Below, one piece after another: positions 1,462 to 12,059 of a stretch of DNA of 12,059 nt. The notes below the pieces were generated by a model, which was not told the origin of the DNA, ran no database searches, and was given only the letters and a program-made list of their open reading frames with translations. Numbering within the stretch: the stretch's first letter is position 1; each line of letters begins with the position of its first letter. The position numbers were made by a program, and so were the translations under genes. Origin of the DNA: a virus. Lineage: Duplodnaviria; Heunggongvirae; Uroviricota; Caudoviricetes. The stretch is taken from the IMG/VR virus record IMGVR_UViG_2713896791_000029; one strand, 5' to 3'.

Positions 1462-1951
1462 ATATGTCCTTTTATCACCACAGCAAGGCAACCCATTGAT
1501 TTAATTAAACAACACACACTGCAAAAAGTGCTAAAAACAGCAAATTGACTACACCATTAACTACACCGTTCGGTGCACTGTATGAAACAACGTGGAACAA
1601 ATAGACACAAGAAATATACAGGCGGGTAATCTTTCCAGGGGGAAGCGCACCAATTCATGAGGGGCGTTAATGTCGATATGGGGATCCCCATAACGGGGCT
1701 ACAGGATTTTTTTTCCGGTTAACTGTTAATCAGGCTGGTGGGTTTTACCTGTTCGGTAGGTGTTATGATTATCGTAATACCTTTCCCCCAGTGGGGTAAA
1801 AGCTCCAACCGTAACGATGTTCGTTGTGGTTGCCTTGATGGTCTGCGTGGTCATTATGACCATTCAGAATATGAAGGGTGACGCTTCCGACTTCCTCAAA
1901 TTGAGGTTTCCGAAAATATCAGCGGGTTAGCGATTAATCTGACCATTAATT

Positions 1952-1974
1952 AAACTACGAAAATTTCGTAGTTT
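1952..1974. repeat. 23-bp palindrome: perfect 11-bp arms AAACTACGAAA / TTTCGTAGTTT around a single central base
   Basis: Read directly from the sequence. Lies in the non-coding stretch between phoQ and the first island gene; candidate protein-binding site. Confidence 0.4.
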
Positions 1975-2062
1975 GTGAATATATTCCGGCCTTCTGGTTA
2001 ACAGTCCTCAGATGTGAGGGATGTAGCCAGCGCAATTTTGCGTTATCGGGAATATCAGCAAG

Positions 2063-2344
2063 TTACCGCCGCAGCCGTTCCGGCTTCTTCCAGTGGTACG
2101 TTATTTTTTCTTTCTCCCGATACAGTTCAACGCGGCGATTGTAGGCCAGCATTTCAAGAACGCGGTTCCGTATGTTGCGCATATCAACGCCATTAAGTTC
2201 TATACCATCACGGCGCATCACTTCCGCTACAACACGCACATAATTTTCAGCGGTCACGCTGTCCGGCTGTGTGGCCTGTTCGTCATGCTGCTGGCTGATT
2301 CCGGCGACGCGGCGGATTAATCCCAGTAGTTCGGCTTCTGTCAT
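2063..2344 (-). CDS. Hypothetical protein (93 aa), last gene before the island's left junction
   Basis: ORF with GGGGG Shine-Dalgarno about 5 nt upstream of the ATG. No motif I recognise. Confidence 0.45.
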   Translation of the reverse strand: MTEAELLGLIRRVAGISQQHDEQATQPDSVTAENYVRVVAEVMRRDGIELNGVDMRNIRNRVLEMLAYNRRVELYREKEKITYHWKKPERLRR

Positions 2345-2401
2345 TGTGCCCCCATCGCTCTGATAGTCTGGTGTCGTCGGGTCCTTCCTGGAATTATGGC
2401 C

Positions 2402-2580
2402 CGTTACGGGGCGGCGACCTCGCGGTTTTTATCTGTTTATGAGAATTTTCCGGCAAAAGTCAGATCCGCTCTTCTTCTCTGTAACAGACTGTTTAACAAT
2501 GAAAATATTAAAAAAAGAAAGGATCTGACACGAGGCATTTTAGCCAGAAAATGCCATTATCAGATCCTTTCTCATTTTTG
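2402..2580 (+). other. Lambda-type cos site: cosN (GTTACG/GGGCGGCGACCT/CGCGG, overhang at 2408-2419) plus cosB-like R3/I1/R2/R1 region
   Basis: Close to collinear with the remembered left end of lambda (GGGCGGCGACCTCGCGG...TTTATGA.AATTTTCCGG...TCTTCTTC...AAAGAAAGGA...CCTTTCTC..TTTTTGT). R-element cores read CAGATCC at 2460-2466 and 2560-2566, and inverted as GGATCTG at 2520-2526, where lambda has CGTTTCC. An AT-rich I1-like segment lies between R3 and R2. Confidence 0.8.
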
Positions 2581-2599
2581 TTCAATAATTGCGCGTCTG

Positions 2600-3142
2600 T
2601 TACTCGCCTTTCTTCTGTAGCAACTTTTCCGGTACGTTTCCGGTTGTTTCTTTCAAGTAATCAGCCAGTATCTGTGGGAGGTTGTCGGCAACTCTGGCAC
2701 TGGCATTACAGACTTTAACCACTTCCCTTTTAAGCCTGTCCAGCATGGCGGGGGTAATCTGTGGGAAGCTCCTTTGCATAGTAAGCGGGAGGATGTCCAT
2801 GATTGATGAAATCTGACTCGCCAGCTTTGAAAGCGCGTACAGGCAAAACTCAGTATCAATCACGTCACCGCGATCGCGATCGTTTTTAAGTTCCTGCGCC
2901 TCTGCCTGTGCTGTCAGTAATCTGATCCTGACTCGTAAAAGTTCATCATCGTCAATCTCGCCTTTGTCGTTTATAAGCTGGCTAATTGCATTGTTAACCC
3001 TATTTTCTATCACGCTGGCAACATCATAAAACGCCTCACGGCCTTTACGCTCAACGGGAGTTACTCCCCACTTGTCGAACGCTGTCGCACTTACACGGCA
3101 GCTTTTCGCCATGTTTTTTTTGTTCATCAGATGAGATTTCAT
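2600..3142 (-). CDS. Small terminase subunit, lambda Nu1-like (180 aa)
   Basis: The C-terminal two-thirds align with lambda Nu1 (LTAQAEAQELKNDRD...DTEFCLYALSKLASQISSIMDILPLTMQRSFP versus Nu1 LTRAQADAQELKNARD...ETAFCTFVLSRIAGEIASILDGLPLSVQRRFP). The N-terminal wHTH region has the same spacing with conserved NKK...A...S...W and EAFYDVASVI (Nu1: EVLYDSAAVI) but different intervening residues. Start codon choice is uncertain; the ATG at 3142 has only a weak Shine-Dalgarno. Confidence 0.85.
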   Translation of the reverse strand: MKSHLMNKKNMAKSCRVSATAFDKWGVTPVERKGREAFYDVASVIENRVNNAISQLINDKGEIDDDELLRVRIRLLTAQAEAQELKNDRDRGDVIDTEFCLYALSKLASQISSIMDILPLTMQRSFPQITPAMLDRLKREVVKVCNASARVADNLPQILADYLKETTGNVPEKLLQKKGE

Positions 3143-3143
3143 T

Positions 3144-10016: not shown

Positions 10017-10107
10017 TAGCATTGCCCACCAGCCTGATAGCGACTATCATTGCCGTTCTTATGTTTGGGATCACACACACAAACGGCGCAGCGGGTTATC
10101 TGTTCAG

Positions 10108-10139
10108 AAAGGCGGCTCCATTTCGGGGCCGCTTTTTTT
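10108..10139 (+). terminator. Rho-independent terminator ending the rightward RHH transcript
   Basis: GGCGGCUCC-auuuc-GGGGCCGC stem-loop followed by U7. Lies in the convergence zone between the + strand cassette and the leftward alpA-like gene. Confidence 0.6.
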
Positions 10140-10285
10140 ATGTCTGAAAAACCCCAATTTTGTTGTTTTTCAGTTTCACCAGGGCGAACGAATCCCCGCC
10201 CACGTTCTGGCGTATATTCAATCTTCATGGTTATAGCTCTGTGTTCAGATGATTGATGTGTGGCGGCTGCGTGCCGCCAGCGTGA

Positions 10286-10474
10286 TTAATGAACTGCCTT
10301 GCAGCTATCCTTCCAGGCCAGAACCTCGGATAAAGACCAGCCAACGGAACGACCGCCAAGTTTACGACGTGATGGGAATTGTCCGGCCTTTTCCAGGCGG
10401 TAGCGACACGTACGGCTAAGGCCGGTTAGTTTTTCGCATTCTTTTTCACGTATAAACCGATCAGTGCTTAACAC
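10286..10474 (-). CDS. AlpA-family transcriptional regulator / excisionase-like protein (62 aa from the GTG start)
   Basis: The motif EKECEKLTGLSRTCRYRLEKAGQFPSRRKLGGRSVGWSLSEVLAWK matches the AlpA/Vis-type HTH signature. The GTG at 10474 is preceded by AAAGGGGGG. The longer ATG-initiated form (10606) has no Shine-Dalgarno and an implausible N-terminal extension. Confidence 0.8.
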   Translation of the reverse strand: MLSTDRFIREKECEKLTGLSRTCRYRLEKAGQFPSRRKLGGRSVGWSLSEVLAWKDSCKAVH

Positions 10475-10737
10475 TATTGCCCCCCTTTCGTTTCTTAAAG
10501 AGTCATCAGGTGTCGTATTGTTCCCGCTAGAGTGATGAATGGCAAATATTGAGGATGTATGATTTACAGAAAATGAAACAGTAAGAATAAAATCTTTTAA
10601 ATTCATGTTAATACAAAGGCATAAAATATTGTTTCATGCCTTTTTTCTCACGCGTTAAAGCGTTATTCGCTAATGTATAAAAAAACAGTCACACAAATAA
10701 AATCAGTCACTTATAAACCTGTGTACTTTTTCGCCTC

Positions 10738-10787
10738 TTGTTCGTGGTTGTTCCACGTTGTTTCACATTGTTCGCCGTTGTATCTGT
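10738..10787. repeat. Five tandem 10-bp units with TTGTTC-like cores
   Basis: TTGTTCGTGG / TTGTTCCACG / TTGTTTCACA / TTGTTCGCCG / TTGTATCTGT, with helical phasing. Lies in the 355-bp gap between the integrase stop and the alpA-like start. Confidence 0.4.
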
Positions 10788-10829
10788 GTGCTTATCCAGT
10801 ATGCGCATACTGAAAAAACACGAAAAAAA

Positions 10830-12059
10830 TTATTTTCTTCTGGCTGCTGGTAGTGCGGTTACGTTTTCATGTGTTCCCGCCAGTATCCCTAACCGCTCCA
10901 TCCACATATCCAGCGCATTGCGTTTAGCATCCAGATAACGGGAATGATTATAAACTCGCTGCATTCCTGGCATCTGGTGGCCTGTAAGCTGCTCCACGAC
11001 GTGAGGATCCACGCCTAAATCGCTCAGCATCGTTGTAAAGGTGCGCCGGATGTCATGTAGTGACCAGTGAGGGTGATTTAGCCTCCTGTGCGCTAATCTG
11101 CCGTACTGCGACACGCTTGTTTCCTGTTTCACTTCCCCCAGCAATAAGCCCGTGTGCCTGTTCTGCTCCACCAGCTGCGTGACGAACGGCAGTATTGCTT
11201 CCGGTATGGGCCGGAATATTGCCACCTTCGTTTTGCTGTGTTCTTTCGGCACGGTCCAGAGCATTTCGGTAAAATCCCACTCGCTGATCTCCGATAACCT
11301 CAGTTCTACCGTCCGGCATCCGAACACAATCAGGAGGCGGATTAACGCGATGTAGTAGGGGGAGAATATTTTTTTGTCCAGTGCCTGCAATAATTCGCCC
11401 AGTTCTTTGGTGCTTAAGACACGCTCGCTTATATCCGGTTTTTTCCCAACGTCCGCCACACTCATATCATCAAGAACGTTGCTGATTGCATAGCGCCGCC
11501 TCCGGCAGAACTTAAGCGCCTGTTTGCACGTCTGTAGCAAGAATCCGGCAGTAACAGGCGTTCGCTTTGCCACCTGGTCAAAACAGGCCAGCCAGTGCCG
11601 TAGCTCGCATTTATCCAGCGGCATAGCACCAATGTGCTGTATTACGTGATTATTAAGGCGCTTTTTCAGGGCGGCATAATCCACGCGGTTTTCCTTTGCG
11701 TACGACTCAAGCCAGTAGGTGAGCGCATCGCCAACCGTTACCGGCTTTAACGCTTCCTGTACGGTGTAATTAAGCTCATGACGTGGATTTTTCCCCTCTG
11801 CCAGCCATGCGCGACACTGGGCGGCTTTTTCCCTGGCTGATTTCAGGCTCAGATCAGGATAATTTCCCAGCTTAATGCGTTCCGGTGGTGCCCCCCTTCC
11901 CGTTCCGGCCCTGTAAGTGAAATACCAGGTTAAAAGGCCACTGGTTGAATGCCTGACGCTCAGGTTTCCACCGTCATTAAGAAAGGCTGTTTTTTGGGCG
12001 GGTGTGCCGTTGATTTTCCTCAGCTGTGTATCGCTCAGTTTGTTAAGCGCTCTGCTCAT
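10830..12059 (-). CDS. Tyrosine site-specific integrase, P4-type (409 aa)
   Basis: N-terminal arm-binding-type domain (LSDTQLRKI...GLLTWYFTYR...IKLGNYPDLSLKSAREKAAQ) and C-terminal catalytic motifs (GCRTVEL, HDIRRTF, GHQ...QRVYNHSRY). The ATG coincides with the last bases of the window, so an upstream extension cannot be ruled out. Confidence 0.9.
   Translation of the reverse strand: MSRALNKLSDTQLRKINGTPAQKTAFLNDGGNLSVRHSTSGLLTWYFTYRAGTGRGAPPERIKLGNYPDLSLKSAREKAAQCRAWLAEGKNPRHELNYTVQEALKPVTVGDALTYWLESYAKENRVDYAALKKRLNNHVIQHIGAMPLDKCELRHWLACFDQVAKRTPVTAGFLLQTCKQALKFCRRRRYAISNVLDDMSVADVGKKPDISERVLSTKELGELLQALDKKIFSPYYIALIRLLIVFGCRTVELRLSEISEWDFTEMLWTVPKEHSKTKVAIFRPIPEAILPFVTQLVEQNRHTGLLLGEVKQETSVSQYGRLAHRRLNHPHWSLHDIRRTFTTMLSDLGVDPHVVEQLTGHQMPGMQRVYNHSRYLDAKRNALDMWMERLGILAGTHENVTALPAARRK

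Follow-up and report, generated by a model that had tools for sequence, protein, structure and literature searches.

The island between phoQ and roxA

We analysed a 12,059-nt stretch of DNA, hereafter the window, from the IMG/VR virus record IMGVR_UViG_2713896791_000029 (Caudoviricetes). The window opens with phoQ, and to its right lies one compact block of genes that are nearly all encoded on the minus strand (Table 1). This block belongs to an island that measures 11,081 bp from att core to att core and sits between phoQ and roxA (ycfD). A preliminary description made from the window alone had proposed a helper-dependent phage satellite starting at position 1462. This is nearly correct, since the true start is the att core at 1460-1469 (AAATATGTCC, or GGACATATTT on the other strand), which overlaps the phoQ stop codon. 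The same description suggested that a rightward extension would reveal a matching direct repeat, and a second core was indeed found 172-181 nt past the window end. The extended locus (L001) contains exactly two copies of the core, 11,081 bp apart, where 0.06 are expected. Past the island come roxA and no virion genes: in NC_013353.1, the integrase gene is directly followed by roxA (ycfD), pepT and potA.

The preliminary description also proposed a comparison with the site downstream of phoQ in other E. coli strains. Of 5426 complete E. coli genomes, 4822 contain the joined empty-site sequence without interruption and with only one core, which shows that the island is not part of the conserved backbone. 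Both the site (ycfD-phoQ) and the core (GGACATATTT) are the same as those reported for the island EcCICFT073 (Table S1, Fillol-Salom et al. 2018). A tRNA scan of the window gave no hits, and we rejected the possibility of a tRNA-targeting island. The arm-like repeats just inside the two island ends include a doubled motif, AATTRACTACACCATTAACTACACCG, at 1543-1568 and at 18930-18955 of the extended locus. Given the Arm-DNA-bind_3 domain of the integrase (Pfam), these doubled motifs are probable candidates for arm-type integrase sites. The 'att core' listed for EcCIDI14, located in an IS110 transposase gene, is the reverse complement of AATTRACTACACCATTAACTACACCG (Fillol-Salom et al. 2018).

Two runs of N affect how the window is read. 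Compared with an identical genome, 64 N at 7356-7419 replace 232 bp, and 50 N at 8429-8478 replace 192 bp. As both runs are shorter than the sequence they replace, window coordinates are compressed to their right, and the repA and DUF4222 genes look truncated.

Table 1. Position, strand and evidence for the features of the window (window coordinates).
Feature	Position	Strand	Remarks
phoQ	1-1461	+	To its right one compact gene block, nearly all minus strand
att core AAATATGTCC (other strand: GGACATATTT)	1460-1469		10-bp direct repeat; overlaps phoQ stop codon
Arm-like repeat, doubled TTRACTACACC	1543-1617	+	76% identical direct copy just inside opposite island end
orf93, conserved PICI gene, phrog_1561	2063-2344	-	88% amino acid identity to CFT073 counterpart; dN/dS 0.15
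cos2	2379-2599	+	cosQ, exact lambda cosN GGGCGGCGACCT at 2409-2420, then cosB-like stretch; points into terS 3' end
Full-length small terminase TerS, Nu1 family, 180 aa	2600-3142	-	Pfam Phage_Nu1 79 bits (cut-off 30); phrog_57
cos1	3143-3318	-	cosQ, cosN 3287->3276 GGGCGGAGACCT (one mismatch), island-specific cosB up to terS start codon
orf137, scaffold-like, homologous to lambda Nu3/gpC C-terminal domain (counterpart c1501)	3348-3761	-	phrog_1999 at 4.4e-63
Head decoration protein homologue, lambda gpD family (counterpart c1500)	3774-4109	-	Pfam HDPD 1e-17; 38% identity to gpD
Major capsid protein homologue, lambda gpE family (counterpart c1499)	4122-5177	-	Pfam Phage_cap_E 2.2e-50
orf68, small conserved gene, phrog_3255	5177-5383	-	Stop overlaps capsid gene start
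PerC-family regulator, accessory gene	5986-6258	-	Pfam PerC 3.9e-43; RefSeq annotation
SSB	6269-6679	-	Pfam SSB 1.7e-16; dN/dS 0.05 vs EcCICFT073
Predicted replication origin, AAAGTGAG iterons	6937-7128		7 copies, one inverted; two groups flank AT-rich stretch; directly 3' of repA
Replication initiator, RepA-family helicase (AAA_25), phrog_2850	7128-8360	-	Pfam; true length 466 aa, partly masked by N run 7356-7419
DUF4222 gene	8357-8514	-	Partly masked by N run 8429-8478
Putative regulatory region	9200-10228		Icd-like gene 9200-9406 (-); YlcI/YnfO 9606-9785 (+); 62-codon open reading frame 9828-10016 (+)
AlpA-family activator	10286-10606; RefSeq start gives 10286-10474	-	Pfam Phage_AlpA 2.1e-16
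Tyrosine integrase, arm-binding domain	10830-12059	-	Pfam; last island gene; start codon ends at last base of window

The island is a member of the EcCICFT073 family

We conclude, with a probability of roughly 0.93, that the island is a helper-dependent phage satellite, a member of the EcCICFT073 family of Gram-negative phage-inducible chromosomal islands (PICIs) with a TerS-type packaging cassette and a RepA-helicase replicon. In published experiments, lambda, phi80 and a resident lambdoid prophage induced EcCICFT073, packaged its DNA and transferred it (Fillol-Salom et al.). In a blastn alignment to EcCICFT073, the two ends of the island (integrase-alpA and phoQ-proximal), the regulatory region, DUF4222 with the N-terminal portion of the initiator, SSB-PerC and the entire capsid module showed 80-94% identity. 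The integrases of the two islands are 96.6% identical in amino acid sequence.

The general layout is also that of a PICI. The size lies within ~8-15 kb, att repeats bound the element at a PICI-specific site, and a terminal integrase gene is adjacent to alpA. The initiator gene is followed by 3' iterons, and cosQ-cosN is combined with the island's own cosB and a packaging-redirection gene (TerS). Transcription is essentially one-way: the only annotated opposite-strand gene in the island is YlcI/YnfO (9606-9785), while the EcCICFT073 record annotates two at the same position. SatelliteFinder defines PICIs by an integrase, a regulator, a primase-replicase, capsid morphogenesis and a small terminase, and elements with all five are 'Type A', nearly all of them from E. 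coli. Judged from Pfam and PHROG hits against this published definition, the island contains five of the five core components and none of the forbidden tail, holin or capsid-forming PICI (cf-PICI) components.

The integrase, AlpA, RecA-like replication protein and SSB of the preliminary description are all where it had placed them (Pfam), and its lambda-type capsid protein, decoration protein and small terminase correspond to Phage_cap_E, HDPD and Phage_Nu1. The tight gene coupling that it reported is borne out by the coordinates. Position 5177 is common to the capsid gene and orf68, the SSB gene and its upstream open reading frame (ORF) overlap by 4 nt, and the ORFs at 8746-9210 and 8520-8753 overlap by 8 nt. 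Its list of missing virion parts was right except for one entry. Pfam and PHROG scans of the island ORFs revealed no portal, large terminase (TerL), tail or lysis genes, nor were any present in the flank, where roxA is next to the integrase gene. Prohead protease, head-tail adaptor or connector and HNH genes were likewise found in no ORF and in neither flank. A scaffold had also been listed as absent, but orf137 is Nu3-like (see below).

The preliminary description could not tell whether the family was already catalogued; neither the family nor this individual island is new. The family has been described since 2018, and positions 1462-12059 of the window match, at 100% identity, the chromosome of E. 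coli O103:H2 12009 and those of several strains of O45, O26 and other Shiga-toxin types. The exact element of O103:H2 12009 (1325875-1336965, 11.1 kb) is catalogued as 'PICI, similar to E. coli O157:H7 EC4115' (Table S2, Fillol-Salom et al. 2018, PMC6092414). At least 80% of the island is covered in 360 of the 5426 complete E. coli genomes, representing several serotypes, and the TerS cassette type occurs in 766 of them, O157:H7, O26 and O103 included.

Similarity to phages is limited. When 50,697 phage genomes were searched with the island by megablast, a single DNA match was found, 56 bp of cos (phage 21 cos, 87.7%), and we rejected a recent phage origin on this basis. The nearest phage proteins to the island genes show only 44-47% identity.

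Two observations concern relatives of the island. Integrases with 97% similarity to that of the island occur in elements of 14.5-15.5 kb that carry HNH and terL, in E. coli CE10, E. coli IAI39 and Shigella flexneri (Table S2, PMC6092414); classical PICIs and cf-PICIs thus appear to share this integrase type. NZ_CP148328.1, a 10,790-bp circular E. coli 'plasmid' record, is really a related PICI (int, AlpA, YlcI/YnfO, Icd-like, DUF4222, primase) and carries a prohead protease-capsid fusion gene. This record may represent an excised island that was assembled as a free circle.

Two inverted cos sites flank a full-length small terminase gene

The preliminary description correctly reported cos, yet as a single site. 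We found two cos sites in inverted orientation that flank the terminase gene, as in EcCICFT073. In an alignment of the cos sites of lambda, CFT073 (two) and the island (two), cosQ (GGGTCCT...) and cosN are common to all five, and divergence sets in at cosB. The cosB of cos2 contains TCCGCTCTTCTTC, which is one base from the lambda R3 core. The position of cos2 matches that of EcCICFT073 cos2, and cos2 is the only part of the island with a phage DNA match. The position of cos1 is that of EcCICFT073 cos1, the site upstream of the packaging gene that is needed for transfer (Fillol-Salom et al.). Its sequence is GGGCGGAGACCT in the O103/O26/O45 lineage, while the islands of O157:H7, IHE3034 and CFT073 have the canonical GGGCGGCGACCT. 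The cassette that is not shared with EcCICFT073 (2454-3245, comprising terS and both cosB) sits exactly between the inverted cosQ-cosN repeats, replacing rppA. By sequence, these inverted cos repeats look like the borders of a module exchange.

The packaging gene encodes a full-length small terminase. Over its whole length, including the C-terminal segment, TerS is 36% identical to lambda Nu1 (181 aa). With the EcCIIHE3034 TerS it shares 97% of its residues, and its nearest phage relative is N15 gp1 (44%). A sequence search of solved structures with TerS returned nothing significant. EcCICFT073 instead encodes RppA (144 aa), which pairs with the helper TerS and retargets it to the island cos. 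Rpp proteins (135-153 aa) have a TerS-like N-terminal DNA-binding domain and are without the C-terminal TerL-binding part, according to the literature. We rejected an Rpp assignment for the island protein given its length of 180 aa, its full-length alignment to Nu1, the absence of BLAST similarity to RppA, and its match to the Pfam Phage_Nu1 model, which RppA fails to reach. EcCIIHE3034, which 'encodes TerS', was transferred very rarely by resident prophages (Fillol-Salom et al. 2018). By analogy with the TerS proteins of staphylococcal pathogenicity islands (SaPIs), we infer that the island TerS would bind its own cosB and recruit the helper TerL directly.

The replication module

The initiator gene is followed by the iterons that the preliminary description had noted. 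Directly after the repA stop codon, AAAGTGAGRSG occurs seven times in ~190 bp (6937-7128), compared with 0.73 copies expected in the whole window. Gram-negative PICI origins have the same layout, with iterons 3' of the initiator gene (literature), and the iteron stretch is the predicted replication origin of the island. E. coli PICIs have four Pri-Rep alleles (Fillol-Salom et al. 2018).

The capsid module is conserved

The capsid protein shares 44% identity with lambda gpE, and its best match among the 50,697 phage records reaches 47%. The third protein of the module, orf137, also matches the C-terminal part of phrog_53, the gpC-type protease-scaffold family (6.7e-9), and residues 117-200 of lambda Nu3 match phrog_1999 at E = 2.7e-26. 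Direct BLAST of orf137 against lambda Nu3 was marginal (E = 0.026), so the link between the two proteins rests on the profile matches.

We compared seven genes with their EcCICFT073 counterparts by the ratio of nonsynonymous to synonymous substitution rates (dN/dS). All values were between 0.05 and 0.25, which indicates purifying selection. In the capsid module they were 0.06 for the capsid, 0.18 for the decoration and 0.21 for the scaffold-like gene; SSB, for comparison, had 0.05. These low values indicate that the module is maintained by selection, and the capsid, decoration and Nu3-like genes are probably functional.

The preliminary description counted the capsid and decoration proteins among the parts that the satellite needs. 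This view finds no support in EcCICFT073, where deletion of c1499 or c1500 left transfer and interference unchanged and all packaged DNA was phage-sized (Fillol-Salom et al.). The markers of EcCICFT073, c1501::tetA and the replacement of c1499 by cat, are both inside the capsid module. In the literature after 2019 we found no function for the Gram-negative PICI capsid module. This leaves a puzzle: about a thousand E. coli PICIs keep a capsid/decoration/scaffold-like module under strong purifying selection, and its deletion has no known phenotype. A second gap in PICI biology concerns the packaging route and the helpers of TerS-type Gram-negative PICIs.

Proposed life cycle and alternative explanations

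We propose that the island resides at attB between phoQ and roxA, where its 10-bp core would overlap the phoQ stop without altering phoQ. An induced or infecting lambdoid cos helper would turn on alpA, after which AlpA would activate the leftward operon and the integrase would excise the island, as shown for EcCICFT073. RepA and SSB would replicate the island from the iteron origin 3' of repA and so generate concatemers. The helper large terminase would cleave the lambda-type cosQ-cosN of the island, a step that has likewise been shown for EcCICFT073. Specificity would come from the island TerS, which would bind the island-specific cosB of cos1 and use its C-terminal part to recruit the helper TerL, diverting packaging from the phage. 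The DNA would be packaged into helper-built heads, most likely as four-unit concatemers, and helper tails and lysis functions would complete the cycle. The size limits of lambda packaging are well established. Four units (4 x 11,081) amount to 44.3 kb, or 91% of lambda (48,502 bp), and three units to only 68%.

Several points speak against this scheme. The island itself is known from its sequence alone, and its life cycle would follow from homology with EcCICFT073. The C-to-A change at cohesive-end base 7 of cos1 might weaken cutting. Resident prophages transferred the TerS-type islands EcCIIHE3034 and EcCI18098 at only <1 to 110 transductants per ml. The direct recruitment of TerL by TerS is suggested only by the 36% identity to Nu1, and as the prototype needs the helper TerS, the island TerS could act through it, like Rpp. 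In this last case the Nu1-like protein would pair with the helper TerS, retarget the mixed complex to cos1 and block phage packaging. Consistent with such a role, the gene occupies the same slot as rppA between cos1 and cos2, the Rpp DNA-binding domain resembles TerS, and EcCICFT073 transfer depends on the helper TerS. The protein is nevertheless full length, with a C-terminal segment that is absent from Rpp proteins. It also has no detectable similarity to RppA, and the Phage_Nu1 model that it matches is not met by RppA. We consider an Rpp-like action possible but doubtful. A decayed lambdoid prophage remnant, which kept a few head genes, an integrase and cos and is no longer mobile, is far less credible. 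As would be expected of a remnant, the island has capsid, decoration and Nu1 genes of the lambda family as well as a lambda-like cos, and there is a point change in cos1 and one RefSeq pseudogene in the regulatory region. Against this, both att cores and the other 19 RefSeq coding sequences are intact, and the seven genes compared with EcCICFT073 are under purifying selection. The gene order is unlike that of lambda, with E before D and terS after the head genes, and DNA in common with the 50,697 phage genomes is confined to the 56 bp of cos. In addition, a compact 11-kb layout of the same kind is found at several att sites, and the prototype EcCICFT073 is mobile. We regard decay as highly improbable. 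The reading as an intact satellite, which the preliminary description already preferred, agrees with the attB, gene order and 80-94% nucleotide identity shared with the proven EcCICFT073.

The capsid module raises another possibility, namely that the island is a partly capsid-forming satellite. Its own capsid, decoration and Nu3-like mini-scaffold proteins would build or resize the head shell, e.g. for one or two 11-kb units. The helper would then give only portal, protease, TerL, connectors and tail, which would place the island halfway between classical PICIs and cf-PICIs. The capsid protein, the scaffold C-terminal domain and the decoration protein form a coherent module, on which purifying selection is strong (capsid dN/dS 0.06), and the distance of its capsid protein from phage capsids (47% at most) suggests that the module has long been kept in satellites. 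'Capsid morphogenesis' is among the PICI core parts of SatelliteFinder, where its presumed role is to modify hijacked capsids, and PmCI172, which has a capsid homologue, makes small heads (literature). The test markers of EcCICFT073, moreover, are inside the module. However, the portal, protease and connector genes are absent, and the c1499 and c1500 deletions affected neither transfer nor interference, with packaged DNA remaining phage-sized; such a satellite is quite improbable. A similar proposal is that the four-gene module (orf68, E-like, D-like and Nu3-like) builds or resizes heads with a natural helper, where the full-length TerS might spare the helper TerS. The published negatives do not fully bar a head-building role, because the derivatives were marked inside the module and were tested mainly with lambda and phi80, not with natural helpers. 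We nonetheless hold this role to be unlikely. If true, it would make the common 'Type A' PICI a partly capsid-forming satellite.

Regulators, small genes and flanking sequences

In EcCICFT073, AlpA is the helper-induced activator (Fillol-Salom et al.). The PerC-family gene belongs to the known PICI accessory genes (Fillol-Salom et al. 2018). The PerC-like genes of EcCICFT073 and EcCIEDL933 have no effect on LEE1, whereas that of EcCIMP1 represses LEE1 (literature). The island carries a PerC-family regulator in LEE-positive pathogens.

The regulatory region allows two annotations. RefSeq lists a small Icd-like gene, a pseudogene and the antisense YlcI/YnfO gene at 9200-10228, and the 62-codon ORF comes from the ORF list only. 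The YlcI/YnfO gene and the 62-codon ORF are both antisense to a 342-codon open frame that spans the region. This frame was annotated earlier as ECO103_1238, with the CFT073 counterpart c1487 ('icd-like', 428 aa). On the main strand it is also open in CFT073 (433 codons from stop to stop) despite many substitutions and indels. The 62-codon ORF differs from CFT073 by one substitution in surroundings that are ~18% diverged. Codon-position counts, by which we also compared the 342-codon frame with the antisense small genes, favoured neither annotation.

Three near-identical terminator-like hairpins (AGCCGGAGAAATCCGGC followed by T runs) are present on the minus strand at 5962-5979, 5598-5615 and ~3320-3341. 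They close the PerC, orf74 and capsid-module units, and the third adjoins the cosQ of cos1. An Rfam scan of the window at gathering thresholds found no RNA family, and a PADLOC scan of ten small or unknown ORFs gave no match to a defence system. Outside the island, potB lies ~5 kb away. The genes that come after it, espK and espN, encode type III effectors (24249-26908 of the extended locus) and hint at a further inserted element at the pot operon.

Comparison with known satellites

Among known satellite families, P4-like satellites have only int and AlpA in common with the island. Psu, Sid, Delta, Epsilon and the alpha primase-helicase were not among the Pfam matches of the 20 ORFs scanned, and we rejected this assignment; the literature treats P4-like satellites and PICIs as separate families. 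The cf-PICIs of the EcCIEDL933 type also have int, alpA and rep, and some use the same att sites. They differ in encoding a portal, protease, head-tail connectors, HNH and TerL and in forming their own small capsids. The island has none of these genes and only a fragment like the Nu3 C-terminal domain, and a cf-PICI assignment was rejected because portal, protease, connectors and TerL are lacking. The SaPIs of Staphylococcus resemble the island in that a satellite-encoded small terminase redirects the helper large terminase to satellite DNA. Conversely, their packaging is pac-based (headful) and not cos-based, their sequences are unrelated, and the SaPI protein Ppi blocks the phage TerS.

Closer relatives are found among the E. 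coli PICIs. EcCIIHE3034 (cspD-clpS) shares the TerS (97%), the capsid/decoration/orf137 module and the two-cos layout. It differs in its integrase and att site, its primase-type initiator, the lack of an annotated PerC gene and its poor transfer by resident prophages. The PICI at phoQ in E. coli O157:H7 EC4115 and ECP19-598 has the same site, architecture, RepA helicase and TerS, and is distinguished by the exact cosN in cos1 and by small differences in the genes of the alpA-DUF4222 interval.

Overall, the island is most like EcCICFT073. They share the attB (ycfD/roxA-phoQ), the 10-bp core, two inverted cos sites, iterons 3' of the initiator gene and a length of ~11 kb. The gene order is the same: int, alpA, YlcI/YnfO on the opposite strand, Icd-like, small ORFs, DUF4222 and the replication initiator, followed by a small ORF, SSB, PerC, a small ORF, capsid, decoration, a 137-aa ORF, the packaging gene, a 93-aa ORF and phoQ. 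The capsid, decoration, Nu3-like, SSB and PerC proteins are 94-98% identical. Apart from one base change in cos1, two segments are not shared. The first, 6856-7994, covers the origin and the remainder of the initiator, which is a D5_N primase-helicase in CFT073 and a RepA/AAA_25 helicase in the island. At 2454-3245, CFT073 has RppA (144 aa) where the island has TerS (180 aa) with its own cosB. As judged from these alignments, the island combines the integrase and site of EcCICFT073 with the TerS cassette of EcCIIHE3034 and a RepA replicon.

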